A DNA stretch of 64,000 nucleotides from Alphaproteobacteria bacterium (GTDB lineage Bacteria; Pseudomonadota; Alphaproteobacteria; MPNO01; UBA830): NCBI GenBank assembly GCA_964291215.2, contig OZ219791.1, positions 2,368,001 to 2,432,000 of the forward strand. The letters are read 5' to 3'. The notes under the pieces were generated by a model that was not told where the DNA came from, did not search any database, and was given only the letters and a program-made list of their open reading frames with translations. Positions 4,115-33,238 of the stretch are shown here, in pieces (the first letter of the stretch is position 1; every line of letters starts with the position of its first letter). A program made the position numbers and the translations under genes.

Positions 4115-7100
4115 TACTGTAACTTGATGTCTGGAAATTTGTCTGAGGTTTGCGCTTTGAGGCGTTTCACTGGGGGGCTAGCCCTGCCGTGTAGCCACAA
4201 GTTTGCTACCCAACATGTTTTTGCACCTGTTCGAGCATGTATCGCTTGCCGTCCTCGAAGCCGAATTGGTGTCCGATTCTGTGGCCGATGGTGGCTTTCG
4301 TGAGGGTTCCGTAGCCCTGCCACATGATCTGGTTTCCGGGGTCGGGCGTTCGCCCGCGGTATCCGCCGAGATGGGCGACGAGGCGGACGGCGTTCCCGAG
4401 CGTGTCGGGAGCATCGAGCCGGCTGTTGAGGGCGTAGTGACGCAGGAAGCTGAGTTCGTGATCGGTGAACAGCAGTTCGGGCTCGCACTCGGGGACCTGC
4501 CGCAGGGTCATGACCATGATGCGCGATGACGGCGGCGCGTTGCAGGCGGTGCGGAACATGAGGAACTCGGTTCGGCAGCCGGACTTGAGGACTCTGAAGA
4601 AGTCCTCGACGCCTTTGGAGGTAATATCCGATCATCTCGGCGGCGGTTGCGGCGTGGTCGACGGTGGTGAGCAGGAACCACTGGATCGGGTCCTCGTTGC
4701 CGGGCGGGTTGCGCTCGATGAGGTGGACGGCCGAGACCGGCTTCTTGACAGTGGCCGGCAGGGTGGCCTTGCAAAAGCGCAACTCGCTTTGCGCGCGCGG
4801 CTTGACCTTGCTCGACTTCCTGCGCTCGCCGAGGCGCTCGACCCGGCTCGCGGCGGGGCTGACGGTCGCGAACAGCTTCCGTTCGCCGGCCAGGCAGCGG
4901 TCGTCCGCACCAGCAGTTCGACCCCCGGCGCTGGGCATCGAACAGACAGTCGGCCTCGCACACCGCGATCACCCGCGTCAGCGCGCGCGTCGCCCGGAGC
5001 GTGTCCTCAAGCGCCGGGTCTTGCACGTGCGGTGACCGAGGCGCAGCACGCGGCAGCCCGTTCACCGCAAGCGTCAGGTGCAATCCCAGGGCGCCGGTTT
5101 GGTTCTTGCCGATGATCTGCAGGCCATCGGTGTACGGACGACGCGTGAAGTTCAGATCGGTGCCATCGCGAGCACCGTCGACTGTCCGCGCATGCCCGTG
5201 CGCTCGCGGCGCGAGGATGTTCTCGACCGTCACGTCCGCAGGATGCTCGATCAGTCGGTAGAAACCGTTCACCGCAGCTTCGTCGCTCTCGACATTGCGC
5301 GCGCCCTGGATACGCCAGCGTCGCGCTCTTGACCAGCCGTCAACCGCTTGTCGCCCAACTGCGCACCTCCAAACTCGTTCACCGCCCACACGCCAAGCCC
5401 CTCGCCCGGATCAAGCGCCGGCGCCGCCTCCGGAACCCCCAGACGCCGCCGCGTACATGAATTCACCGGCCGCGGTTCTCGCGATCCTGACGGCCGCGCC
5501 CCGCCGTCGCGCCAAGAAGTTCGCCGCACGCAGGCACGCCCCCTGATCCTCGAGAAACGTCTCGACAAGCCACGGCTGAAAACCGTAACGCGCCTCGAAG
5601 TCCCCCGCCGCAGAACACGCCCCAGCACATGGCTGGCAAGGTTGGCAACACCCGGCCGGATCAGGAAACGGCTCAGAACCCGGTCAAGATTGTCCCGCCG
5701 CTGCGCTTCGTCCCACCCCCGGTCGCGCGCCGACAACCGCAGCGGCAGAAAACCCCGCGGCGCCCAAAAGACCATGCTCGGAGCCAACGAGATAGCGCAG
5801 CCGGCAAACGTCGTCACGCGGATGCTCGTATGCCATCAGCGTGTTCCACACCCGGCGGCCGGCGCGCGTGCCGCAATCTCAAACCTCCGAAAGCCGGTCC
5901 GGAACTCCCTCCGCAGGCGCTATCGGCGTCCCCAGAAGCGACGGCCGCACCGCCGCGGCGGTGGAAGGACAATCACTTCCGAGCGCGCCTCCAGAGCCCG
6001 CAAAGCCTTCAGACAACCGGCCCCGCCGGTCCCTGAATCCTCGCACAGACGGCGGCGCGTGGCGGCTGCCAAACCGCTCCCGCGCCAGAATCGCGGCAAT
6101 CCGGGGCTCCGCCGCGCGTGGACTGGATCTGTGACTGTGCCATGCCGCGACTCTTCGCGCCGGAGTTGTCCAGTGGGTCTTTTGCTACCCGAGCCGCTGC
6201 ACCCGCGCTGGCTGCTCAAGCCGGCGACAACAGCCAGACCGTGCCCAAAATCCCGCCAACATGGTAGGCGCGGCGGGCATCGCCAAAACCATTGCTTGGT
6301 AGATTTATGTCTACACGGCAGGGCTAGCCCCCCCCAGTGAAACGCGGCGCCATCGTGCTATCCCATGGAGTTGAAAAACATTCATGGAGGAAGCGAATGG
6401 AGCTGCGACACACTACGACGATTGAGGCCGTTTTGGAACATCTGATCGCAAACGGAGCAACGGATCTGGGGCGGGTCTTTGGTCAGCTCTTCGAGCTTGC
6501 GATGCAAATCGAGCGCGAGCAGTACTTGAAAGCGGGCCACCGGACACCGGAACGACAGGGCTATGCCAACGGCTACAAGCGGATCGACACCCCCCTGTTG
6601 CCGTTCAGGTGCCAAAGACGGCCGGTCACGGGGACGATCCGTTCTATCCCCAGTCGCTTGAACGCGGCCAGCGATCTTCTCGCGCCGTAGCCGAGATGTA
6701 CATCAAGGGTGTTTCCACGCGGCAGGATGTAATGCGCGAGTTCGGGAGCCTGTCCTCTTCTCAGGGGGCCACCAGGTTGCTCGATGAAGAACTCGCCGCC
6801 TGGCGCAACCGGCTCCTTGGGCTGATGAAATACCTGATCCTGGATGCGCGCTACGAAAAAGCCCGCCATGACGGCGTTGTGCGCGATGTTGCAGTGCTCT
6901 CGGCCATCGGAATAGGGGCTGCAGGCACGTTCTGGGGCTCTCTGTGGCGCTCTCCGAGGCCGAGGTCCATTGGAGAGCCTTCCTGGAAAGCTTGCTAGCC
7001 CTGCATGGTACGACCTTCATCGTCTCGGATGACCATGCTGGGCTGAAAGCAGCACGACGCGCGGTGCTGGGCGCGGCGACATGGCAGCGCTGCCAGTTCC

Positions 7101-7525
7101 ACTTGGCGCAAAACGCCGTGCACCGAACAACGACATCAGGAAACGTATTGGAAAACAGCTCGGAGCCATGCGTCCTCACTCCAAACCGCCGAGGCTGAAC
7201 TGGGCGCCCTCGTGGCCAGCTATCGCGACAAGCATCCAGGCTTCCTGGCTGGAAAAGAATGCGGGGCTCGCTGTCTTCACCTTGCCCGATGCTCACCGCA
7301 AACGTATGCGAACCTCGAACGGCATCGAGCGGCCGATCCAGCAAGAGCTCAAGCGGCGCACCTCCAAAGTCAGGGTCTTTCCAAACCTCGCCTCGTTGGA
7401 GCGCCTCTCAACCGCGGTCCTCATCGACGAAAAATGGGAAACCGAAACCAAGGCATACATCAAATGGGAACAGCTCGATGACTGAGAGCTTCACGACAAT
7501 TTCCAGACATCAGGTTGCGTAATCT
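4115..7525 (+). mobile_element. IS256-family element (pseudogenised), interrupted by an IS4 element
   Basis: Inverted ends sharing aac.tgatgtctggaaatt (~4121-4139 / 7498-7517); flanking direct repeat cttcgtagg at 4106-4114 and 7526-7534. Motifs 'AEMYIKGVSTR', 'YLILDARYEK', 'VSDDHAGLKAA', 'WQRCQFHLAQNA', 'RTSNGIER' across 6397-7485. Confidence 0.88.
4184..6321 (-). mobile_element. IS4-family (IS50/Tn5-like) element with DUF4338 N-terminal domain, decayed
   Basis: 19-bp IS50-like ends CTGCCGTGTAGCCACAAGT / rc CTGCCGTGTAGACATAAAT; 8-bp TSD ggctagcc at 4176-4183 and 6322-6329. Motifs 'WAVNEFGGAQLGDKRL', 'DGTDLNF', 'PIQWFLLTT', 'VAHLGGYRGR..PG..MWQG', 'SRFLIRPGVANLASHVLG'. Confidence 0.88.
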
Positions 7526-7707
7526 CTTCGTAGGCCAGGTGACGGTAGCCTTTGGACATGAACAAGCTCCCTCCATCTTGTACAGGAACTCTCACCGCTA
7601 CCGCTCCGCAACATCATGCGTCTAAAAACACATGGCCACAGCCCATCATGTGTTGCACTTCACTATGGAACGGGGGGGGGGGGTATTATATCTCACATTC
7701 TATCGAG

Positions 7708-9231
7708 GTAACTGCTCACCCCTTGGTTCCGGCTTGATGTCGGGGTAGAGTAATGAACGGGTTTTCGTGGAGATTTGACACTGCAGGCCGATTCGTTTAG
7801 TGGTGGTCATCGAGAACGACGGGGACCGCCAGTGGGCTACTTTGGATCGAAGGCGACGAGCGGGCTGTGCCAGCTGCTTCCGGGGCTCCAGCCTCCGCAT
7901 GATCTGTATGTGGAAACGCATCTCGGAGGCGGCGCGCTGATGAAGCGCAAGGCCGGGTGATGGCGACGGGCGGCGCGCGAGGAGTTCGAAGCGGCCAAGA
8001 CCGCGGCGCTGCCGGCAAGGTGGCGGAAGAGGCCGTGATCCGCGTCCTCGTCATCCTGCTCGACATCATCATCGTCGTCCTTCTGGAGAAGACCACGCAC
8101 GAGCCGGAACTCCGGTCTGCCGCCGTCACAGACGGACGAGAGCGTGCCGGGAGCAACGGCCCGAAGCCGAACCGGCAGATGGGCGACAACCTGCGCAAGA
8201 CCATCGTCGAGGAGACGGTCGCGGCCTGCGACGCCTGCGGCGCTGACATCGACGGCCCCGTCGATCGGGAGCGCCGCGTCCTCTATGACATCGTGTTCGA
8301 GGTCGTCGAGCGCCGCGCCGAGATCAAGGAATGCCCGAAGTGCAAGGCCCGGGGCCGGTTCCCCGACAACATCCCGTGCAGTACGGCATTCAGGCCCTCG
8401 TCATCAACCTGCTGGTCGCCCAGATGCTGTCCCTGCACCGTCGCGCTCGTGCAGGCGATCTCCGGCATCAAGCTCTCCGAGGCAACCTGCCTCGGCTATG
8501 CTTTCACGATGTGTCATGGGAGGAGGCCGCCGTGGCGTACCTCCTGCAACGCCCGATGTCGACGATTTCGGATCAACAGTAAGTGGCTCCATGTCGTGGG
8601 ACCCTGACGTGTAAGTTCCCGCACCGCAAGCGCGGGCAAGAGATCGGCATCATCCCGTGTTACAAGGGCGTCCTGACTGCTGGGCCTCGTACATGGGCTA
8701 TGACCAATGTAGCCACCAGCTGTGCGGCAGCCACCTGCTGCGCGAACTGACCTTTGTCGTCGAGGCTACCGCGCGACTGATGAAGAGCCTGCTCCGCGAG
8801 GTCTGCCACAAGGTCAACAAGAGCGCATCCAGGACCCTGAACGACGCCGGGCCGGGCGCAAGCGCTACCGCACCATCAGGGCGCCAGGGAACTGCCCGAC
8901 ATCCCGACGAAAGGAAAACGTGGACGCAAGTCCGACGCGCACAACCTGCACGAACGTCTCGTGAAACACGAAAACCTGCGCTTCACAGACGACCCTGATG
9001 TCAGCTTCACCAACAATGCCGGAGAACAGAAAATCAGGATGGCAAAGGTCAAGGTGTCCGGATGCTTCCGCTCCACGCAAAAGCATGGTGCCGGAGCTCA
9101 AGCTACCTCACCTCCATGGCCGCACTCGGCTACAACCCACTCGTCGCCACCCAGATCGCCCTCGATGGAAAAGCCGCAGACATCATCAACGAGCACTATG
9201 AATCAGAACCCAACAAGGGGTGAGTAGATAC
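7708..9231 (+). mobile_element. IS66-family element with DNA adenine methylase passenger remnant (internally deleted)
   Basis: GTAA-type TIR gtaactgctcaccccttg / caaggggtgagtagatac; 8-bp TSD ctatcgag at 7700-7707 and 9232-9239. 'GYFGSKATSGLCQ...YVETHLGGGALMKRK' followed by IS66 fragments (HQLCGSHLLREL, FTNNAGEQKIRMAKV). Confidence 0.88.
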
Positions 9232-21688: not shown

Positions 21689-24624
21689 TGGTCGCCTCGA
21701 TCGGCGCCGTCGCCGCGCCGTCCCAGGGCGTGAGCTACTACGAGAGGGACGGCTATTACGCGAAGGACGATCCCGAGCACCGCGATGCCAGCGCCTGGGC
21801 CGGCAAGGGTGCGAAGGCGTTGGGCCTTTCCGGCCCGGTCGATCCGGACGCCTTCACGGCGATCCTTGAAGGCCGGGTGCCGGACGGCCCGCAACTGGGC
21901 CGTCCCGGCAAGGACGGCGATATCGTCCACCGGCCCGGCCGCGACCTCACCCTCTCGGTCCCGAAATCGGTCTCCCTCGCCGCGCTGGTGGGCGGCGACG
22001 CCCGCGTCGCCGAGGCGCACGGCCGGGCGGTGAAGCGGACTCTTGCCTGGGTCGAAAGGAACGTGATCAAGACCCGGATGAAGGCGCCGAACGGCGGGAG
22101 AATGGTCCGCGCCGGGGACCAGAAGGCGGTGATCGCCACCTTCACCCACGAGACCTCGCGCAACCTCGATCCGCAGCTCCACACCCATGCGGTGATCGCC
22201 AACATGGTGCAGGGCGAGGACGGCAAGTGGCGCACCATGGCCAACGAGAAGCTGTATTCCTCGAAGATGCTGATCGGCGCGCTCTACCGGGGCGAACTTG
22301 CGCGGGAACTTGCCTCGCTCGGCTACGGCATTGAGAAGACCCATACCGACGGGCGGTTCGAGATCGCGGGTGTCTCGCGGGAGGTGATCGATACCTTTTC
22401 CACCCGCCGCGCGGAGATCGAGGCGGCGATGGACGGGCGCGGCCTGGGCACGCCGGCGGAGAACCAGCGCGCCGCCCAGCGCGCGGCGCTGATGACACGG
22501 GCGGCGAAGCGCGATGTCGACCGCGCCGAACTGCGCGAGATGTGGCAGCGCCAGGCGGAGGGGCTGGGCTTCGACGCGAGGGCGCTGACGGCCGACGCGG
22601 TGGCGTGGAGTCACGGCGCCGGGGGTAGGGACCGCGAGGCTGGCAGGGACGCAGCACCGGACGGGGCGGCGGTTCGCCAGGGCGACCTGTTCGATCCCCC
22701 GCCGCAATATCCGGTGGACGCGGCGATGGCCTGGGCGGTGGACCACCTGTCCGAGCGCGAGGCGGTGTTCGCGAAGACCGACCTGCTTGCCGCCGCGCTC
22801 GCCTGGAAACCGGGATCGGTCAGCATCGGAGAAGCCGAGGCCGCCGTTGCGCGACTGGAGAAGGAAGGGACCCTGCATCCATGCGGCCTGCCGGCCTGGG
22901 GCGAATCGCTCACCACCGACAAGGCGGTGGCTGACGAAAAGGAGACCATCGCGCTGATGGAACGTGGCCAGGGTGCCTCGCGCCCCGTGATGCGCAGCTG
23001 GATCGCGGGGCCGCTCCTGCACAAGGGCCGCCTCACCGTGGGCCAGAAGGAAGCGGTGAAGACCATCCTGTCCTCGAAGGACCGGGTGGTCGGCGTGCAG
23101 GGCTATGCCGGCACCGGCAAGACCACCATGCTCGACCGCGCCCGACAGCTTGCCGCCAAGAGCGGCTACCGCACGATCGGCGTCGCGCCGTCCGCCTCGG
23201 CGGCGCGCACATTGGCTGCCGAAGCCGGGATCGAGACCGAGACCCTGCAACGCTTCCTCGCCCGCAATGCCGGCATCGCCGAGGGGCGGCTGACCCGCAA
23301 GGGCGCCAGGGAAATGCGTGCAGCCTTCCGCAAGACCGTGCTGGTGGTCGACGAGGGCTCGCTCGCCTCGACCGTCCAGGCCCGTGACCTGCTGCGGATC
23401 GCCGCCGCCATCCGCATCCCCCGCCTGGTGCTGGTCGGCGACCGGAAGCAGCTCGACGCGGTGGATGCGGGCAAGCCCTTCGCGCAGTTGCAGGCGGCGG
23501 GCATGAAGACGGCGGTCATGGACGAGATCCTGCGCCAGAAGGACGCCGACCTGAAGGAGGCGGTGCGCGCCAGCCTCGCGGGCGAGATCCGTAGGGCCTT
23601 CGGAAAGCTCGGCGACCGCATTGCCGAGGTGAAACCGGACAATCTCGCCGGCGCGGCCGCCGCGCGCTGGCTGAGGCTCTCCGCCCGCGAACGCGAAAAC
23701 ACCGGGCTGATGGCGCCGAGCCATGCGCTCCGCCGGGAGATCAACGGCCACATCCGCGAGCGCCTCGCCCGCGACGGCGTCATCCGCGGCCCCGCTTATC
23801 AAGCCGAGCGGCTGGTCTCCCACGGTTATACAAGTGCCGAGAAGGCAGTCGCGGCGAACTATGCTCCCGGCGATGTCGTCGCCTTCCACCGGGCTTATCG
23901 CAGCCTCGGCGTCGCCAAGGGCGACGAGCGCCGCGTCGCCGGGGTCGATCACCGCAAGGGCACGGTGATGCTGGAGGGGCCGGATAGTCAATCCGTCCCC
24001 TGGCGGCCGCGCCAGGTCGGGGCGAAGCGCGGCGGGGTCGAGGTCTACCGGACCGAGGCCCTGGAGCTCCGCGCCGGCGACCGCATCCGCTGGACCCGCA
24101 ACGACACCGGCCTCGGGCTGGTCAACAGCGACACGGTGGAGGTCATGCGAGTCCATGGTGACCGTGTCGCCTTCCGGCTCGGCGACGGCCGGACGCTGGA
24201 ACTCGGCAAGAGCGACCCGCAGCTGCGCCATCTCGACCATGCCTGGGCCTCGACCGTGCATGCATTTCAGGGGCGCACCGTCGATAACGTGATCGCGGTG
24301 ATGGAGGCGAAACACCCGAAACTGTCGACGCAGAAGAGCTTCTACGTCGAGATCAGCCGCGCCCGCCACAATGCGACGCTGGTCACGGACGATGCGAAAA
24401 CGCTCCGCGAGACCCTGGAAGTAGCCACCGGCGAGCGGATCTCAGCGCTTGAAGGGATCGGCGTGGCGGCAGCACTGACGCGCGCAGAGGAGAAATCGGC
24501 TGAACGCGAACGGACGCCGCAAGTAACGCCGCCGATGCGTCCGGGACAGAAAGAACGCGACGACGGGCCGGAGAATGCGCCCGCGCCAAGGCAGAAATCC
24601 GTGGAGATGGAACTCGGCATGTAG
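21688..24624 (+). CDS. MOBF (TrwC/TraI-type) relaxase-helicase
   Basis: True start ATG 21688: 'MVASIGAV..SYYERDGYY', 'DLTLSVPKSVS', 'HETSRNLDPQLHTHAV', 'GYAGTGKTT', 'VVDEGS', 'STVHAFQGRT', 'FYVEISRAR'. Confidence 0.95.
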   Translation: MVASIGAVAAPSQGVSYYERDGYYAKDDPEHRDASAWAGKGAKALGLSGPVDPDAFTAILEGRVPDGPQLGRPGKDGDIVHRPGRDLTLSVPKSVSLAALVGGDARVAEAHGRAVKRTLAWVERNVIKTRMKAPNGGRMVRAGDQKAVIATFTHETSRNLDPQLHTHAVIANMVQGEDGKWRTMANEKLYSSKMLIGALYRGELARELASLGYGIEKTHTDGRFEIAGVSREVIDTFSTRRAEIEAAMDGRGLGTPAENQRAAQRAALMTRAAKRDVDRAELREMWQRQAEGLGFDARALTADAVAWSHGAGGRDREAGRDAAPDGAAVRQGDLFDPPPQYPVDAAMAWAVDHLSEREAVFAKTDLLAAALAWKPGSVSIGEAEAAVARLEKEGTLHPCGLPAWGESLTTDKAVADEKETIALMERGQGASRPVMRSWIAGPLLHKGRLTVGQKEAVKTILSSKDRVVGVQGYAGTGKTTMLDRARQLAAKSGYRTIGVAPSASAARTLAAEAGIETETLQRFLARNAGIAEGRLTRKGAREMRAAFRKTVLVVDEGSLASTVQARDLLRIAAAIRIPRLVLVGDRKQLDAVDAGKPFAQLQAAGMKTAVMDEILRQKDADLKEAVRASLAGEIRRAFGKLGDRIAEVKPDNLAGAAAARWLRLSARERENTGLMAPSHALRREINGHIRERLARDGVIRGPAYQAERLVSHGYTSAEKAVAANYAPGDVVAFHRAYRSLGVAKGDERRVAGVDHRKGTVMLEGPDSQSVPWRPRQVGAKRGGVEVYRTEALELRAGDRIRWTRNDTGLGLVNSDTVEVMRVHGDRVAFRLGDGRTLELGKSDPQLRHLDHAWASTVHAFQGRTVDNVIAVMEAKHPKLSTQKSFYVEISRARHNATLVTDDAKTLRETLEVATGERISALEGIGVAAALTRAEEKSAERERTPQVTPPMRPGQKERDDGPENAPAPRQKSVEMELGM

Positions 24625-24720
24625 TCGGCACGGCTCCCGGCCATCCGAGCAGCCGTATTGATGAGCCGTCCACTGGAACTTCAATCCGCCACCAAGTTGA
24701 AATCCGGGTAACTCTCCCGC

Positions 24721-27700
24721 TTACGTTTCAATTCCCATCCAGCATAGCAAGTCTATGTCGTCTCGCTGGATCGGAGGGAGCGGTTCCGGCGGTCTTGCCG
24801 CCTCCAGCCCGGTCGCATGTATCTGCTCGATCAGAAACCGTGAATGAGCGGCGCCAGCATGGTCCGTGTTTTCAAACCACTCGCGTAACAGGATCTCCTC
24901 TCGCCTGGGCCACGGCGCTTCAAGAATATCGACGGCCCCGTCGATCCGGGAGGCAGTCATGTCGGGAGGCGGGTTTTCGCGGATAAACGCGGCAACACGG
25001 TGATTGAGCGGCCTCACCTTCGGCTGCAGGTTGATCGGGTCGGTGCTCCACGTCCACTCGGAATGGATATCCGCCTGTGCGACGGCCCAGAAATCATAAA
25101 CGCGCTCCTGCAGGCTATCCGGAAACCAGACCGGCGTATCCGCTTCGCACTCGATCAACCGCAGACAGGTGCCGATCTCACGGATCACCGATCCTGCCTG
25201 GTCCGAGACGTCCCAGTCCTTGTCCGCCGGCACAAAACGCAGGAAGGTGCGCTCGCCGACAACGGCACAGAAAAAGACGCCCCGGCGTTCGCCCTTCACC
25301 ATGCCCGATCCGATCTTCCACGGGAGACCGATAATGCTCTGGCGATCCTCTTGCAGCGCCTTGCGAAGCGTCTGGCGGTATTCTTCGCCGCTTTGCGCCG
25401 CGCCCGGTGTGGCGCCCCGCTCATAGAGGGAGGCATCCTCCTTCAAGAGCTTCTCGATCTCGTCCCTCGTCTCCGCGAAGACCTGCCGCCCGTGCGCTGC
25501 ACCCTCGATGGGAGCCTCGACACCGACGCTGGCCGCCGCCATGGCCAGCTTGTCGAGGATCCGCTGTTCCAGTTTGAGAAGCCGATCCAGGCGGTCGGCC
25601 GGGAAGATCGTGCGCAGGAACACGCGGTCGTGCGGGCTGCCTATGCGGTCGATGCGCCCGTGCCGCTGCACCAGGCGCATCGGGTTCCAGGGCATATCGA
25701 AATTGACGATGTGCCGGCATTGCTGGAGGTTGACGCCTTCGGCCAGAACATCGGTGGAGATCAGAAGGTCGTACATGTCGGCGTCCCGGCCAGCAGGTGC
25801 CTCCATCGAGACCGGCGCAAAGCCCTGCACAGCCTGTTGCCGGGAGACTTCGGCCAGCTCTCCCGATCCGCTGACGGCGACCATACGCCCGCGATAGGAG
25901 ACAATTTCAGGTTTGCGGTCGAATTCCTCTTCAAGGAAGTTCCGTATCCATTCGACGGTATCCTCGAAGAACGAGAAAACCAGCACCTTGCGTTTCTGTG
26001 CTTCGTCGATGCCGTCGGTTGCCTCGCTTTCAGCTTGAAGCGCGATCGCAACCAGGGCGTCCGCCAGCGCCCTGAGTTTCGGATCCCGGTCTGGCGCGAT
26101 TTCGGCTGCCCGGCCTGCAAGCGCCCGCAACAGGTCCCGGTCGTGCTCAACATCGCGGCGCAGGCGCTCAACATCATAGAGGGCAGCTTCGGTTCGGTGT
26201 TCGGTTCCCAAAAGGACATCCTCGAATACCGCCTCGTCATCGGCAGAAAGTTCCTTCATGAACGCGGTGGTGACCACGTAGCCGGCATCCAGAGCGTCGA
26301 GGAACGCCCCGTGCTCTTCCGCCATCTTCGCCGCGGTCTTGCGGAAGGCGAAGGCCGAGGATTCAAAGCGTTTCAGGAGACCGGAACGCAAAAGCCCCGC
26401 AAGCGCCCGCGCCCGGGCCTCCTCCTCGGGCTCGGCGCCTTCGCGCAGATAGAGGTCAGGCATGTAGCGGGAGAAGGCGATCGCATCGGGGCTCTCCGGA
26501 TCGAGGGCCGCCTCCAGCCGGTCGAAGAAGCCCGGCAGCATTTCGTCGAGGTTGTAGCGGACGCTGACGGCCTGAGGCGCCGGGAACACGATCGGCGTCG
26601 GAGCGCCGTCCGGGCCGGTAATGTTGTCGCCCGCATAGTGTCTTCTGACGAACTCGCGGGTTCGTTTGACCGTGGTGGCGTCGATGATCGGATAGAGCAG
26701 GTCCGGGTTGAGGTTCGCCGGATCCTCACGCATGGCGGCCACGAACCGCTGTCGGATCGAAGTGATGCCCCTGTCAGCGAAGTGGGCATCCTGGCGAACG
26801 AAGAAACGGACAAGGTGGAAAAGGTCCCAGAGCGAGTTGTTCACCGGCGTCGCCGTCATCAGGAGCAGGTCGCGCCGCTGGCCGAACATCAGCCGTCTCA
26901 GCGCCGCCGCGCGGGTCGGCGCATCGGGGTTGCGGTAGTTGTGCGCCTCGTCGACGATTACAAGCTGGTATTCGTCCAAGGGCCGCCGTAGTTTTTGCTG
27001 GTTGGCGTTTGGTCGCTGGGCATCACGTAACTGTTCATCGCTCGCCAGTTCCTCAAAGGAAAGGCATTCGACAAACAGCTGGAACCGGGTCAGGAATTGT
27101 CTCCAGGTGCTGTCGCGCAATGAGGCCGGACAAATGAGCAAGGCCCGTTGTCGGCACTCACGGTAGATCTGCAGTATTTCGCCGGCAATGAAGGTCTTCC
27201 CGAGCCCCACCTCGTCGGCGACGATCGCGCCGCCGGTTTCCCGGATCAGGCGCAAGGCCCGCGCCACGCCGTGTTTCTGAAAGCTGGTAAGGGGCAGGTC
27301 GCCGTCGCTTCCAGCGTCCTCCTCGACCTCCTGGCCGTAGAGTTGCCACAGTACCCGAATGAAAATCTCCCAGGGCGTGCATGGCCGCAGCGCTTCCTCG
27401 AATATGGCGGCGAGGTCGTAGGGTTCGGCCTCCTCCCAGAGATGGTCGAACCACTGTCTCGCCTGCCCGGCAACCGGACGGGCGCAATGACCGAGATTCA
27501 ACTCCAGATTGCCGGTGAGCCCGGCGCTGGTGAGGTTCGACGAGCCGGCAATGATCCCTTCGGGCCCGGCAACGGCTTCGTTTGCTGAAGTGAAGATATA
27601 GGCCTTGGCGTGCAGGAATGCCTGCTCGTAGCGCCGGACCTCCATATTCCCGGCCTGCAGCGCCGCGATCAGCTTGCGCAGCGCCGCTCCGCTGGCCCGC

Positions 27701-28059
27701 GTGAATGGCAGACGGTCCCGCTCCCACAGCAGGGCCTCCTCCATGCGGTTAAGCCCGGTCCGCAGGCGTCGGTGTTCGAAGGCCGACCCGGTCTCGTTCA
27801 GGTGCCGGCGTTCCGGCGGCGTGCGCGCCGCCATGTCCGCCCCCAGCATCAGACGAACCGTGGGGACCCGCCTCAGCCGGTCGGCAATGTGGGCGAAGCC
27901 GGCAGGGCTGAAGAAGGCCGTGGCGATGCGCACCTCGTCGGGTGGTATGTCTACTTCAGCCAAGGCGTGCTCACCGGCCTGCATGCCCCCCAGCACCTGA
28001 TTCAATGCGTGTGCGAGCGTGTTGCCGTCCTGGTTGTCGATGAACTGCGGGTCGGACAT
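24721..28059 (-). CDS. PLD-domain SNF2-family helicase
   Basis: 'FLHAKAYIF..GSSNLT' (HKD-type PLD), 'ADEVGLGKT', 'VDEAHNYRN', 'TATPVNN', 'STDVLAEGVNLQ', 'QRHGRIDRIG'. Confidence 0.92.
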   Translation of the reverse strand: MSDPQFIDNQDGNTLAHALNQVLGGMQAGEHALAEVDIPPDEVRIATAFFSPAGFAHIADRLRRVPTVRLMLGADMAARTPPERRHLNETGSAFEHRRLRTGLNRMEEALLWERDRLPFTRASGAALRKLIAALQAGNMEVRRYEQAFLHAKAYIFTSANEAVAGPEGIIAGSSNLTSAGLTGNLELNLGHCARPVAGQARQWFDHLWEEAEPYDLAAIFEEALRPCTPWEIFIRVLWQLYGQEVEEDAGSDGDLPLTSFQKHGVARALRLIRETGGAIVADEVGLGKTFIAGEILQIYRECRQRALLICPASLRDSTWRQFLTRFQLFVECLSFEELASDEQLRDAQRPNANQQKLRRPLDEYQLVIVDEAHNYRNPDAPTRAAALRRLMFGQRRDLLLMTATPVNNSLWDLFHLVRFFVRQDAHFADRGITSIRQRFVAAMREDPANLNPDLLYPIIDATTVKRTREFVRRHYAGDNITGPDGAPTPIVFPAPQAVSVRYNLDEMLPGFFDRLEAALDPESPDAIAFSRYMPDLYLREGAEPEEEARARALAGLLRSGLLKRFESSAFAFRKTAAKMAEEHGAFLDALDAGYVVTTAFMKELSADDEAVFEDVLLGTEHRTEAALYDVERLRRDVEHDRDLLRALAGRAAEIAPDRDPKLRALADALVAIALQAESEATDGIDEAQKRKVLVFSFFEDTVEWIRNFLEEEFDRKPEIVSYRGRMVAVSGSGELAEVSRQQAVQGFAPVSMEAPAGRDADMYDLLISTDVLAEGVNLQQCRHIVNFDMPWNPMRLVQRHGRIDRIGSPHDRVFLRTIFPADRLDRLLKLEQRILDKLAMAAASVGVEAPIEGAAHGRQVFAETRDEIEKLLKEDASLYERGATPGAAQSGEEYRQTLRKALQEDRQSIIGLPWKIGSGMVKGERRGVFFCAVVGERTFLRFVPADKDWDVSDQAGSVIREIGTCLRLIECEADTPVWFPDSLQERVYDFWAVAQADIHSEWTWSTDPINLQPKVRPLNHRVAAFIRENPPPDMTASRIDGAVDILEAPWPRREEILLREWFENTDHAGAAHSRFLIEQIHATGLEAARPPEPLPPIQRDDIDLLCWMGIET

Positions 28060-31000
28060 TCAGCGCGTCCCGGCCCAGGAACGGTAATGACGCAGCACTG
28101 CGTCCAGGCGGCACTGGTAGTTCCAGCCGTCGTGGAAGGTCTCGAAGACATGAACGAGCTGGGATTCGCTCAACCCGTAGAGATGCGCGGCCACGGCATC
28201 AAGCTCGTGGATCATGTCGTTCTTCTCGTCGGCGGCCAGCGGTCCCCATTCAACGCCGACGGCTTCCGCCCAGCCGGCAAAGCGGTCGTCGGGGCACGCC
28301 AGACGCCCGGCGACTGCGACCACACGTTTCCACCTCGTACAGTCGCGCGGCGGGCGCGGGATGGGGAACGGATTGAAGACGAAATAGTTGACGTGAGTCT
28401 CAACAAAGCGGCGCGCATACCAGTCGAGCGGAATGGAGGAAAGCACGCCGAGAAGGAACGCTTGATCTTGTTTGTCACCGCGAGGCCAGAGCAAATAAGG
28501 TGCTTGGTTGGCGATGAACACCTTCGGAGGAATCAGGCAAGCGATGATGGTTCTGCCATCCGTTGCCCTCGCCACATCGCGGAACGCGATCCGGGGGGCA
28601 AAACACGGCAAGGTTGAACGGTCGCGACGATATTCGGCGTCGAACTCTCGATGAGGGCTGTCGCCTTTCCGGTTTCCGGCTCGTATCCGTTTCCCCAAAA
28701 TCCATTCGATGGCAGGCTCCGGATCGGCCCAAGCGTAATAGATCCCGGTATCCGGGTTCCAGAGATCGAAGGACTCGCCCTTGTAAACCGGCCAGTAGCC
28801 GTCCGCACGATCTTTGCCCGCGAAGGTCATCAGCGGCTTTTGCGCGGTAGCGTGGAGTTCGGTATCCGGCCGGGCGCGCCATTGCGGGCAGTCCGGTCGA
28901 ACGTCATGAGCGCCTTCTGCTGAGTGGCGTCCATTTCCCGGTCGGGACGGGCTCGCCACGTTACCCCCCCCCCCCCGTTCCTGTAATGTTCACATCAAGG
29001 CGCGGAGCCCTGCGGATCTGGGCAAAAACCTCGATGGAATCAGGCTTCGGGAGTAACGGAAGGGACGCGGTGTCGTTCCAGTCCAGGATCTCCTCACGGT
29101 CGAATGCGGCTGCGGTCTGCATGACCCCATCCCGGAAGGAAGGCAGGGAAGCGAAGGGGCCGCGCAAACGGACCGCTTTCTCTTTCGGAGCACCGAGCGC
29201 AATGCAGAGGAGGCCGATGGTGTATTGGGGTGTCACGTTTTCAAACACCCAACCCCGCCGATTCTTCAATGTCACAACATCCATATACGCTGCTTGTTCG
29301 AAAAGCGATTGGCGAAACTCGGTCGACCCCTTGGCGGCCAGCGCACTGCGAGGAAGGACAACACCGATGCGCCCGCCGTCCGCCGCGGTCAGATGCCAGA
29401 AACGCCAACAAAAGGCCTTGTACAGATCGGGGTCGCCGGTCCCCATGCCGGGGTAACCGCCTCCGACCAGGACCTTGCGTACACGGTCCGTCTCGGCGCG
29501 CTCGGCCTCGTACGCCGCGACCAGATCGGGCCTTGCTCCCCGCAACCGCGCCTGTTCCGCTTCGCGCGCCTGGGACGAAAGCCCCCGCAAGCCGGGGAAA
29601 TGACGGGCCCAGAACGCATGCTTTTCAAGCGTCGCTTCCTGCCACGGCGGGTTGCCCAGAATTACATCGAAGCCGGGGCGGTTGCGCAGAAACACTTCCG
29701 GGAAAGCAACCGGGAAATGCAGCGGATGAAGATCGGCAAGTTCCTGGCGTGCGGAGCGAACCGTTCCGTGCGTCTCGAAATCTTCCTTCAGGTCATCCCA
29801 TCGCTCGAAACCGAATCCTACGACTTTTTCGTCAGAGGAGACCGGCGCAGCGGTAATCAGGTCGCAGAGAGCCTCCGTCTGTCCAATTGCCCGGTGCGCC
29901 TCCTGCATGGCCTCGCGGGCGGCTGCAATATCCTGCAGTGTAGCGTCGTTGAGATTGGCAAGCCGTTTGAGGGGTTTTGCCGCTTCCCCCAGCAGGCTTT
30001 CGGCGTCGACCGCAAACAATGTCCCGGCCGCCCTCTCAAACTTCTTCCGGATGTCATCGATCGTGCCGACGCCGACCAGGGCATTGCCGTGAACCAGCGT
30101 GTGGTCGAGCACCGACAGCGGAAGTCCCGGGACAAATGTATGGATCCAGACGGCCAATCTGGCGAGTTGTACGGACAGCGGGTTGAGGTCAACACCGTAA
30201 ACGCAGCGGCGTGCGATCATGCGCCTGAGAAGCTGACCGTCCTCGATGGTTGCCGCTTCGGCCAGTTCGCCGAGTTCCCCAAGCGCAACCCCCCGCAGTT
30301 TGGCCAGTTCCCGACGGACGCCCGGCAGGTCGTGATTCGTAAGATAATCCGCCATGCCCTTCTCGATCCGGTCTATGGCCGCAATCAGGAAATGGCCCGA
30401 GCCCATGGCGATATCCGCCACCCGGAAATCGAAAAACGCCTCCGCTGCTCCGGTATCGTCCATGGCGTCCAACCGGGAGAAATGCTCGGCAAGCGCCGGT
30501 TCCAGCGCCCCGTCCAGCAGATGCTCGACCGCAAACGGCTTGGTGTAGTAACCGCCAGACGATTTGCGCGCGCCGGACCGGTTGTGGAGATAAACCTCTC
30601 CCTTCTTCACCGTGACCGTCGAGCCCGGTCGGGCAGGGAGATAAACACCCTTGTTGTCCAGCGCGAGGTCGCTTGCGGCCAGAGCCAGCTCGGACTCCAG
30701 CAGGCCTTCGTAAATCGTGCCGAACTCGCGCACGCCGAGAGACCGGAAATCGACAGGCCCCGGCGTACCCTCCGGGGTCTCGATGACGAGCAGCGCTCGC
30801 AGCGCCACCTCGAAGACCGCATTCGGCAGGTCGAGCTTCGCCAGATCGGCACCGGCGTGCGATACGTCAGGATTGTCGCTGAACAGGCCGCCATTGTAGG
30901 CGGGCACGCCCCATTCCCCATTTCCGGCGGCCACTGCCTGCCACAGCAGGGTGACTTCCTGCCAGTGCGAGCTTCCCTGGGCGATCTCAATGCCCTTGAT

Positions 31001-32239
31001 CACACATTCGGCGAGTTCCTGCGCCTTCTGCTTCAGCGACCGGCGACGGTAGGCTTCGCTGGATCTGTAGGGCAGCAGATCACGGTCCTCGGCATAGGCG
31101 ATGAACAGCAGACGGAACAGGACCGTCAACGCCATCTCATAGGTGCGTTCCAGCTCAGCCGGGCCGGGATTGTCGAGATTTCGCGCCGCGGCGATTCCTT
31201 TCGCCAGAACCGGCACAACTTCATCGTAGATCCGTTCTCTCAGGCGCGAGGCCAGGTCTCCGGCGAAGCGGCGCGAATTGTCGAGGATCTCATCGAGGCT
31301 GCCTTGCGGCGCCAAAGCGTCGGCGGAGAAGAGCAGCCAGAGACAGGGCAACTGCCCGTCCGGCAGCAGCGCAGGCTGGCACTCGACATAGGTCTTGGTC
31401 CGTCCACGCCGCCCCACGCCGGCCTGGACCGTCGTGGAATAGAGACGAAGACGGTTGCCCTGGACCAGTATGACCCAAGTCAGATTCTCGGCGTCCGCCT
31501 TGGCGAGGGCGTAACTCACCGGAGACAGATTGTTGAAGCGCGCCGCCCCGGCTTCGGGCACTTCCGTCTCGCGCAGCATCACGGCCAAGGCTGTACGCCC
31601 GTGCCGACTCCGCAGCAGGTCGGTCAGGTTGTCGAGCCGCTCGATCTGGAAACCGAGCGCCATAATCAGGTCCCGACCGCTCTTCCCCAGCGTGGCTCGG
31701 GCCTTCCAGCCGGCGTCGGGCCAATCGGGGCGTTCGGGCACGCCATGCTGCAGCTCGTGCAGGGTAAGAAGGCCCTCATTGGCTATCCCCGGCAGGGCGG
31801 TGTCGAGCGACGGCAGGGCTTGGGCGAGAAACCTCAGCGCGGCATGCCGGTTCGGTTGTCCGAGAACCTCATGGCAGAGCCGTTCCAACTGCCCGGGATC
31901 GATTTCGGAATAAACGGGAGGGTCTTCCCCGGAGGCGCCGCACAGCGCCGCGCCGCCCGGATGCAGGACGACCAGGAGCACCGGGGCCGGACGGCCTGCC
32001 CTGCGGGCCTTCCAGGTTCCCAACAGAGCCATCCTGTTCGGCGAAGATGCCGACCTCGCAACCGCGACCTCGACCGCATGGGGGCCTTGGCCGAGGAACA
32101 GCCCTTCGGGGCGAAAGCCGAATTTCGCCCCCGGCGACCACGGACGCCTTGTCTTGCCGTCGAGGAATCCTGCTTCGGCTGCCACAGTACCTCCTCTATA
32201 TTCCCGTCGCCAACCCTGCTTCCCGGATAAGGCTGTCAC
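28060..32239 (-). CDS. Type IIG/Eco57I-like N6-adenine methyltransferase (R-M) gene, out of frame at a G13 tract (28964-28976)
   Basis: 'RKSSGGYYT', 'DIAMGSGHFL', 'YGVDLNP', 'FDVILGNPPW'; the C-terminal TRD part ('RIAFRDVARATDGRTIIA..SSIPLDW..ELDA..AHLYGL') lies in another frame at 28060-28959. Confidence 0.88.
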
Positions 32240-32594
32240 CGGATCTGAAAGAGCGCGCGCGCTGCGGGCGAGATCGGCAATATTGCCGTTGGACGGAGAT
32301 CACCTGCAGGTGCGCAATGCCCACGGTAATTCCCCAGCCTCCCAAAGTCGAGAACACGGTGGTGCGTAGCTCACTGTCGACCGGTGCGTGGGGTCAGACC
32401 GGCTTGGAGCGATATCCCGGCGGCGGCAATGGTGCACACGTAAAGAGAAATCGGACGAGTGCCGGAAGCAGCGGTGCCGATGCGCTCGGTACAGAATGGC
32501 CGTGCAGACGGGCCGGAGAAGGTCCCGCACGCAAGCAAAATCCGTAGAGATGGACCCCGGCATGTAGCCGACCGCGCTGGATGCAGGGGCTATT

Positions 32595-32996
32595 TCAGGC
32601 GAATGTCGTCACACCTTCGGCGGCCGCGGCCTCGTTCAGGCGCCGGTCGAGGCTCGCCAACGCATAGTCCTCGCGAACCGCAAGCGCCAGATAGCTCGCA
32701 TCGTAGGCGCTCAACCGATGGGCGCGCGCCAGCGCCATGACTGCACTATCGTCGGTTTCGCCCGGGCAGACGATGGGAAGACGGCGCAGCCGCGCCATGG
32801 AAGCGTCGGCGTGGCGTCCGGTGATCCGCCCCCGGCGTTCCGCGCTCAGCAGCAGGTTACGCAACTCGTGCCAGAACACGCCCGGCACCTTCGCCGTCTC
32901 CGCGCCCAGCCGGTCCAGCGCAATGTCGGCCGCCGCCGCGTCCTCGTCCGGCAGAACCCAGGCCGCGGCGACCGAAGCGTCGGGAACGAACGCCAT
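32595..32996 (-). CDS. vapC: PIN-domain toxin
   Basis: 'FVPDASVAAAW', 'ELRNLL', 'LSAYDASYLALA..LASLDRRL'. Confidence 0.92.
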   Translation of the reverse strand: MAFVPDASVAAAWVLPDEDAAAADIALDRLGAETAKVPGVFWHELRNLLLSAERRGRITGRHADASMARLRRLPIVCPGETDDSAVMALARAHRLSAYDASYLALAVREDYALASLDRRLNEAAAAEGVTTFA

Positions 32997-33238
32997 CAGA
33001 GCGCGTGTCCCTCGTGACGCCAGGCCAGAATCTCCGCCGTCGTCACCATCTGCTGCTTCGCGCGTTCCCGACGCAGCGTCGCGCTGAGCGTGGCGTGTTC
33101 GTCCTCGCCGGCGATCCGCGTCACATGGGCGACCGGCGTCGTGCCGCGGCAGATCACCAGATCCTCACCCGCCTCCACCGCTGCCAGCAGCGCGGAAAGG
33201 TGGGTCTTGGCCTCCCCGATCTTCACATGCCGCGTCAT
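32996..33238 (-). CDS. Phd/YefM-family antitoxin
   Basis: 'VKIGEAKTHLSALLAAVEAGEDLVICRGTTPVA'. Confidence 0.92.
   Translation of the reverse strand: MTRHVKIGEAKTHLSALLAAVEAGEDLVICRGTTPVAHVTRIAGEDEHATLSATLRRERAKQQMVTTAEILAWRHEGHAL

Follow-up and report, generated by a model that had tools for sequence, protein, structure and literature searches.

A candidate three-state switch: poly-G tract length and alternative recognition loops in overlapping frames of a methylase gene

The methylase gene described here lies on the reverse strand of the 64,000-nucleotide stretch of DNA that we analysed (the window) and carries a run of 13 G residues, followed by two versions of the same 20-codon loop in different reading frames. 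The length of the run probably selects one of three outcomes: a first specificity carried by a split enzyme, a second carried by a fused enzyme, or an off state, the last being that of the window's own G13 allele. Cells probably alternate between two target sequences and an inactive state. We read the duplication as a switch that is maintained and not as a scar.

In the mechanism that we propose, tract length would set which loop, each stored in its own frame, is translated onto the methylase. At G12 or G15, copy 1 would be read off-frame, giving a 26-residue linker, and the product would be one chain with the T..H loop. At G11 or G14, the methylase would carry the R..D loop and end at a stop lying on the ATG of copy 2, where translation likely restarts, so that the remainder of the recognition domain would be made as a second chain and would assemble with the first. 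At G10 or G13, translation would stop immediately and the system would likely be off. Slipped-strand mispairing, which is established for such homopolymer tracts, could flip these states in vivo without a recombinase. The putative partner of the methylase, a PLD-SNF2 protein, would use the same recognition module to cut unmethylated sites, and a change of state would then affect restriction and modification at once.

Simple-repeat phase variation normally turns a gene on and off, or truncates and extends its product; here the repeat would select among packed alternatives. If the switch is real, a population facing phage could change the target of its restriction and methylation as often as the tract slips. 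In annotation pipelines such genes would likely pass for broken ones.

The window locus and its reading frames

The features of the locus, with (-) for the reverse strand, are as follows.

28977..32239 (-): N-terminal part of the methylase gene (open reading frame 28961-32239; start codon provisional)
28964..28976 (-): G13 tract in the hinge between methyltransferase and target-recognition domain (TRD), the putative frame selector; also G13 in the X1 contig
28961..28963 (-): TAA of the third frame, immediately 3' of the tract; likely the off state, and the state of the window
28899..28958 (-): loop copy 1, in frame at G11/G14; position 7 is R (28940-28938) and position 10 is D (28931-28929)
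28882..28898 (-): 17-nt spacer, free in sequence and fixed in length, which holds the loops in different frames
28822..28881 (-): loop copy 2, in frame at G12/G15; position 7 is T (28863-28861) and position 10 is H (28854-28852)
28828..28832 (-): TGATG overlap, the copy-1-frame stop on the copy-2 ATG; putative restart of the C-terminal chain
28060..28830 (-): rest of the TRD and helical C-terminus, 256 aa from the overlapped ATG
24721..28059 (-): PLD(HKD-type)-SNF2 helicase fusion, 1112 aa, beginning directly after the methylase stop

The N-terminal part encodes a degenerate nuclease-like domain, a helical region and a gamma-class N6-adenine methyltransferase (GSGHF, NPPW) with intact motifs (Pfam Eco57I, E 3e-14). 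The PADLOC profile PDLC03620 (REase_MTase_IIG) covers both halves of the gene in order, matching the N-terminal part over profile positions 30-1091 (E 2e-236) and the C-terminal part over 1094-1370 (E 2e-65). A reading made from the sequence alone had called the gene type IIG-like. This holds for the fusion of a gamma-class N6-methyltransferase and a TRD in one polypeptide, which is found in the G12/G15 frame and in single-loop homologues, but not for the N-terminus, which is nuclease-like without conserved catalytic residues. Inspection by eye of 31 aligned N-termini found no conserved D/E-x-K or Q..Y of an active PD-(D/E)xK nuclease, and the N-terminus gave no Pfam nuclease match.

The nuclease of the system is probably the downstream PLD-SNF2 protein (Pfam PLDc_2, SNF2-rel and Helicase_C; PADLOC 'HKD+Snf2'), and the two genes may form a two-gene defence module with the nuclease on the helicase chain. 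The PLD-SNF2 gene lies downstream of the methylase in most homologous loci, and on three plasmids a 'helicase-related protein' gene follows the methylase homologue. About 1.6 kb of extra genes often lies between methylase and helicase, as in L002 (about 6800-8470), where an overlapping frame of the insert matches Peptidase_M78 (IrrE-like).

The sequence-only reading had placed a G13 tract on the coding strand between the methylase core and the specificity region, followed by two diverged 60-nt copies of one segment that are offset by 77 nt and lie in different frames; coordinates, offset and frames were all confirmed. The copies are identical at 42 of 60 nt, and the residues that they have in common are mostly encoded by different codons. 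In-silico translation with altered tract lengths also bore out the three outcomes that had been read from the sequence. Alleles of G10, G13 or G16 stop immediately (1092 aa at G13), those of G11, G14 or G17 read copy 1 and stop 42 codons past its Trp (1136 aa at G14), and those of G9, G12 or G15 pass through copy 1 off-frame before reading copy 2 and the whole C-terminus (1392 aa at G12).

We considered an assembly error in the tract and ruled it out, since G13 is reproduced in a separate contig set, that of run X1, with the reservation that assembled tract lengths can err. The Logan contig of that run matches window positions 28929-30300 with 0 differences and 0 gaps, but X1 is possibly the source sample, so the match is not independent biology. 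A close strain in run X2 has G10, in the same stop frame as G13, with 7 differences over 28650-29224; the two closest strains (G13 and G10) are thus both in the stop frame. Runs X1-X3 also contain several other organisms with diverged versions of the junction, one of which has a C15 run beside copy 1. A second copy in the genome acting as donor was likewise considered and rejected, as a search of the genome returned only one match.

The tract is a frame-shifting mononucleotide run within an open reading frame and lies above the threshold of at least nine nucleotides that PMC7383803 gives for phase-variable simple sequence repeats (SSRs). The genome holds 133 G/C runs of 9-33 nt compared with 6 A/T runs of at least 9, and 84 of the G/C runs share flanks with another; since long G runs are common in this genome, the tract alone proves little. 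Run length varies between copies of the G-run repeat families (9-17 nt in one family of 20 copies), and an identical 30-nt flank precedes both the G12 run at window positions 7672-7683 and a G11 run elsewhere (G000:C2:3449707). Loss of mismatch repair is probably not the cause of the long runs, as mutS and mutL domains are present in open frames.

Around the cassette, the 3' end of a TrwC relaxase gene is duplicated at 24516-24627 and 32461-32570 (86 of 112 nt identical), as if a mobilisable element had acquired cargo by recombining at its relaxase end. A Phd/YefM-like antitoxin and PIN toxin pair (32595-33238, -) lies upstream of the cassette, with NikA-like and SLOG (YAcAr) genes farther upstream.

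Conservation of the two-loop layout

A scan of genomes found 87 relatives, of which 80 were kept; one lacks the junction, leaving 79 analysable loci. Alignment of these homologues, a check that the earlier reading had proposed, separated 19 two-loop from 60 single-loop loci, and the window makes 20 doubles. The doubles span four named phyla, and their C-terminal parts (C-parts) are 61-82% identical. A G tract precedes the loops in 18 of the 20, compared with a G run of at least 8 in 2 of the 60 singles. The proposal of a phase-variable locus with three frames is upheld by these relatives. Tract lengths range from G8 to G30, and not the fixed G13 by which a plain pseudogene was to be recognised; among the 18 two-loop loci with an N-terminal part, the tract leads into the copy-1 frame in 8, the copy-2 frame in 3 and the stop frame in 7. 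Further frameshifts are present in four of these loci. The third frame meets an immediate TAA or TAG in 11 of the 20 doubles and runs into junk of 17-117 aa in the rest.

The geometry of the junction is conserved. The offset between the loops is 77 nt in 17 loci, 74 in two and 83 in one, always 2 mod 3, and spacer identity is 47% among the 17 loci with offset 77. The locus with offset 83 (L027) lies at a contig start, with an apparent CCAG repeat in place of poly-G. The loops themselves differ in a constant way: copy 1 reads R-E-[MLI]-D in 20 of 20 doubles, with R and D at positions 7 and 10, and copy 2 reads x-[ED]-[LF]-H in all 20. Read in their own frames, both copies show purifying selection, with pN/pS of 0.20 (copy 1) and 0.17 (copy 2), and variation in copy 1 is concentrated at the third codon positions of its frame (entropy 0.34, 0.23, 0.96). 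The frame that reads through copy 1 toward copy 2 is free of stops in 20 of 20 doubles; of the 60 singles, 34 have it closed.

These observations do not support the suggestion, made from the sequence alone, that a specificity-domain swap has left its scar in the locus: copy 1 is preserved at the protein level when read in its own frame, the opposite residues are kept in 20 of 20 loci and the offset is always 2 mod 3. The G11/G14 state is therefore probably a second specificity, not a dead truncation. Gene conversion between the copies was also considered and left no signal, with identity between copy 1 and copy 2 of 67% within a locus and 66% between loci.

Each kind of loop also occurs by itself. 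The 60 single-loop genome homologues carry R..D in 25 cases, T/A/S..H in 31 and another pair in 4, and each label requires 18 changes on the tree. Metagenome singles (n=59, from the best 80 of at least 600 matches) carry R..D in 18 cases and x..H in 31.

On a tree of the C-parts (a quick tree, with L076-L079 left out), the doubles fall in one 23-row group with SH 94, and five single-loop loci are nested among them (three R..D and two x..H). On the methyltransferase tree (FastTree, 67 rows), the doubles need 6 changes. A single origin of the layout was considered and not retained. Two single-loop loci, L038 and L043, have one R..D loop after a G10-11 tract; they look like a simple on/off version, and may be a precursor or a collapse product.

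The predicted split enzyme, relatives with three loops and rival explanations

An overlap between the copy-1-frame stop and the copy-2 ATG is present in 20 of 20 doubles (16 with a -1 overlap and 4 as ATGA), compared with 30 of 60 singles (Fisher p 2e-5, kinship ignored), and in 4 of the 5 singles nested among doubles. It is this stop on the copy-2 ATG that makes a restart of the rest of the recognition domain as a second chain likely. Both -1 and ATGA overlaps are known for termination-reinitiation, and 4 of 5 pairs in E. coli reinitiated less after loss of the Shine-Dalgarno (SD) sequence (PMC6728339). We found no SD enrichment at the restart ATG in the window family (mean -1.5 versus -1.1 kcal/mol, p 0.30); as the overlap is in addition partly forced by Leu-Met codons, by itself it argues only weakly for reinitiation. 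Stand-alone C-terminal proteins also occur: among the 120 listed of 485 found, 60 start 4-8 residues before the WPV motif, these starts being gene-caller output. In fused loci, the same place holds an ATG in 0 of 90 and any start codon in 5 of 90. Names among the listed proteins include Acidimicrobiia and Ca. Poriferisocius. The loci show a natural split point in the MmeI/BrxX-type recognition domain.

More distant homologues, sought in metagenomes, argue more strongly for a split enzyme. The best 80 of at least 600 matches include 70 with both ends, comprising 59 single, 8 unrecognised, 1 double and 2 triple loci. The two triples (L140 and L152) hold three loops, Q-type, A..H and R..D, in three frames; a stop closes every loop frame, and the C-terminal ORF has its own start. 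Since no frame reaches the C-terminus, such three-loop systems must work split or not at all. L140 has CCGAG/CCGAA repeats, GGAGG upstream of the start of the C-terminal ORF, and further frameshifts; L152 is a 1.9-kb contig. A clade of 25 proteins related to these loci has an in-frame loop of Q-type in 9, x..H in 5, R..D in 6 and another kind in 5, counts that give no frequency estimate because the clade was retrieved by a loop-containing query. Of these proteins, 24 end after the junction, and off-frame loops can be decoded from the tails of the clade, compared with none of 125 shuffles.

Other repeats take the place of poly-G in the distant homologues, namely GA, CCGAG, poly-C and 4-, 5- and 7-mers. 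Two proteins of one 90% cluster (P0133 and P0153) represent two states of a locus with reversed loop order, and L117 combines a GA repeat with reversed order, the first-loop stop lying within the second loop. The different repeats and loop orders suggest several origins. A further protein, P0178, has one Q-type loop followed by a stop and no obvious repeat, and is perhaps the product of a constitutively split gene. No further three-loop loci were found in viral contigs or in the 401, 86 and 101 genomes around G041, G366 and G052. Three plasmid matches are fused genes, two of them with one recognisable loop, and 40 relatives examined for three-loop loci contained two close homologues, both single-loop.

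From this we lean towards a kind of phase variation that is general and has evolved repeatedly: the three frames after a repeat would serve as a menu of base-reading loops, and the shared remainder would be a separate chain. If the menu reading is true, one gene could, without any recombinase, yield up to three specificities that differ at one base pair, and the three-loop loci would have no off state.

Two other accounts deserve consideration, both of them improbable in our judgement. The tract might be a plain on/off switch in which only G12/G15 is active, copy 1 being a reserve used after a 77-nt deletion or conversion of copy 2. In its favour stand the singles nested among doubles, of both loop types, the two loci with a G10-11 tract before one R..D loop, and the lack of SD enrichment at the restart ATG. 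An irreversible deletion, however, would leave no lasting selection on copy 1 across phyla, and the copies bear no trace of conversion; the constant offset class and a copy-1 frame open to the ATG in 20 of 20 doubles speak against this account, as do the three-loop loci, where no frame reaches the C-terminus, and the 24 of 25 clade proteins that end after the junction.

The frames might also be wired differently, in one of two ways. The C-terminal chain could start at a GTG after the TAA, making G13 a split form of specificity 2, or ribosomal frameshifting could join copy 1 to the C-terminus. Consistent with the former, an ORF of 299 aa (28060-28959) carries loop 2 and has a GTG at 28959, one base past the TAA; an ATG, GTG or TTG stands one base after the stop in 11 of 11 immediate-stop loci, and the G run could pair with the anti-SD sequence. 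For the latter there is a precedent in frameshift suppression at SSRs of a Type III mod gene, as reported in bioRxiv 10.64898/2026.04.01.715767. Start-type codons at that place are nevertheless not enriched (17 of 20 doubles versus 45 of 59 singles), and no conserved slippery motif was found in the spacer. Neither variant seems likely to us.

A decaying pseudogene, a recombination scar or an assembly artefact would fit the truncated window allele, the 133 long G/C runs of the genome, many of them in repeated elements, and the additional frameshifts of some relatives (L013, L058, L076 and L077), but is largely refuted by the recurrence of G13 in a separate contig set, the otherwise intact methylase halves and helicase, and a layout and purifying selection common to 20 loci, and we regard it as very improbable.

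Predicted base reading and comparison with known systems

AlphaFold2 models of a single-loop homologue (L057) reached pLDDT values of 94.7 and 93.7. The 840-aa model matches the folds of CamA, BrxX, M.BseCI and MmeI (Z 19-26) and that of LlaGI, and a TRD-only model matches those of M.BseCI, CamA, PglX and MmeI (Z 12-15); sequence identity to the enzymes with these Z ranges is 9-16%. PDB sequence searches returned nothing for the TRD, and profiles matched the methyltransferase domain only. In each TRD comparison, the Trp of the loop is the first aligned residue: to MmeI 636 (Z 11.6, rmsd 4.0, 189 aligned), E. coli BrxX 675 (Z 12.1, rmsd 3.9, 193 aligned), Salmonella PglX 678 (Z 13.5, rmsd 3.9, 191 aligned) and CamA 340 (Z 13.6, rmsd 3.8, 187 aligned). 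Loop positions 7 and 10 then correspond to MmeI Y642/K645, BrxX K681/D684, PglX A684/S687 and CamA Q346/I349, a register that assumes no gap over ten residues, as the structure comparison gives the first aligned residue only.

The residues at these places read the base pair three positions 5' of the target adenine in MmeI (PMC4833311), in BrxX (PMC11842806) and in CamA (PMC8187626), and mutation changed specificity in the first two. On the strength of the model, residues 7 and 10 of the loop are predicted to read the same base pair relative to the methylated adenine. The K..D pair of BrxX reads G:C (PMC11842806), so R..D likely reads G, and the T..H loop is predicted to read a different base. 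By analogy, the menu would comprise an R..D loop that reads G (as in BrxX), a Q loop that reads A (as CamA Gln346) and an x..H loop that reads a pyrimidine. For one base position in recognition domains of the MmeI/BrxX type, where covariation had failed (PMC4833311), the loci offer matched pairs of residues that occur naturally.

MmeI, BrxX/PglX, CamA and M.BseCI combine a gamma-class methyltransferase with a TRD in the same fold as the L057 model, and MmeI, BrxX and CamA share the i/i+3 pair that reads the base pair three positions 5' of the target A. These enzymes have one fixed loop, in which the pair was altered by engineering and not by a natural switch. Among phase-variable Type IIG enzymes, Cj0031 of Campylobacter reportedly turns on and off only.

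As a defence locus, the window pair shares with Type-2 BREX-related (BR) systems an N6-methyltransferase and an effector that fuses an HKD nuclease to a Swi2/Snf2 helicase; those systems have a DUF499 ATPase and DUF3780 as their defining components (PMC12839542). The window locus differs in having two genes only and no DUF499, the four genome matches to which all lie on contig C1, with the window on C2. Class I DISARM comprises drmA, drmB, drmC and drmD with drmMI. Profiles for DrmMI and DrmD do match the window genes, but below PDLC03620 and HKD+Snf2, and only two genes stand between the toxin-antitoxin pair and the relaxase.

Alternative loops in different frames were not described in the open literature that we searched, a scope that leaves subscription journals and REBASE outside, and a 2025 review of restriction-modification (PMC12707154) contains no description of a loop-frame switch in the sections drawn on here. 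The nearest precedent is the H. pylori IIG enzyme JHP1272 / HP1353-54 (Hpy99XIV, HpyAXVI), where a homopolymer tract alters specificity and, as in the window, a partly duplicated piece of the TRD is read in another frame (PMC3936762). According to that account, the H. pylori gene has two tracts, and read-through adds a C-terminal domain that displaces the reader of positions -1/-2. The window gene has one tract and mutually exclusive 20-residue loops at the start of the TRD, with a predicted -3 reader; its duplicate is 20 codons long and an alternative, rather than the added domain of the H. pylori CTRD type. Relatives carry up to three loops, with the remainder of the TRD predicted as a separate, restarted chain. 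SSR-switched Type I hsdS genes (NgoAV; the three-TRD HsdS of Mannheimia and Fusobacterium) likewise reach two specificities without a recombinase, but, as PMC7383803 presents them, by truncating or extending whole TRDs, with no alternatives in overlapping frames. What sets the proposed switch apart is the use of mutually exclusive alternatives, up to three, in different frames: the system works like the H. pylori IIG and hsdS switches and is a member of neither.
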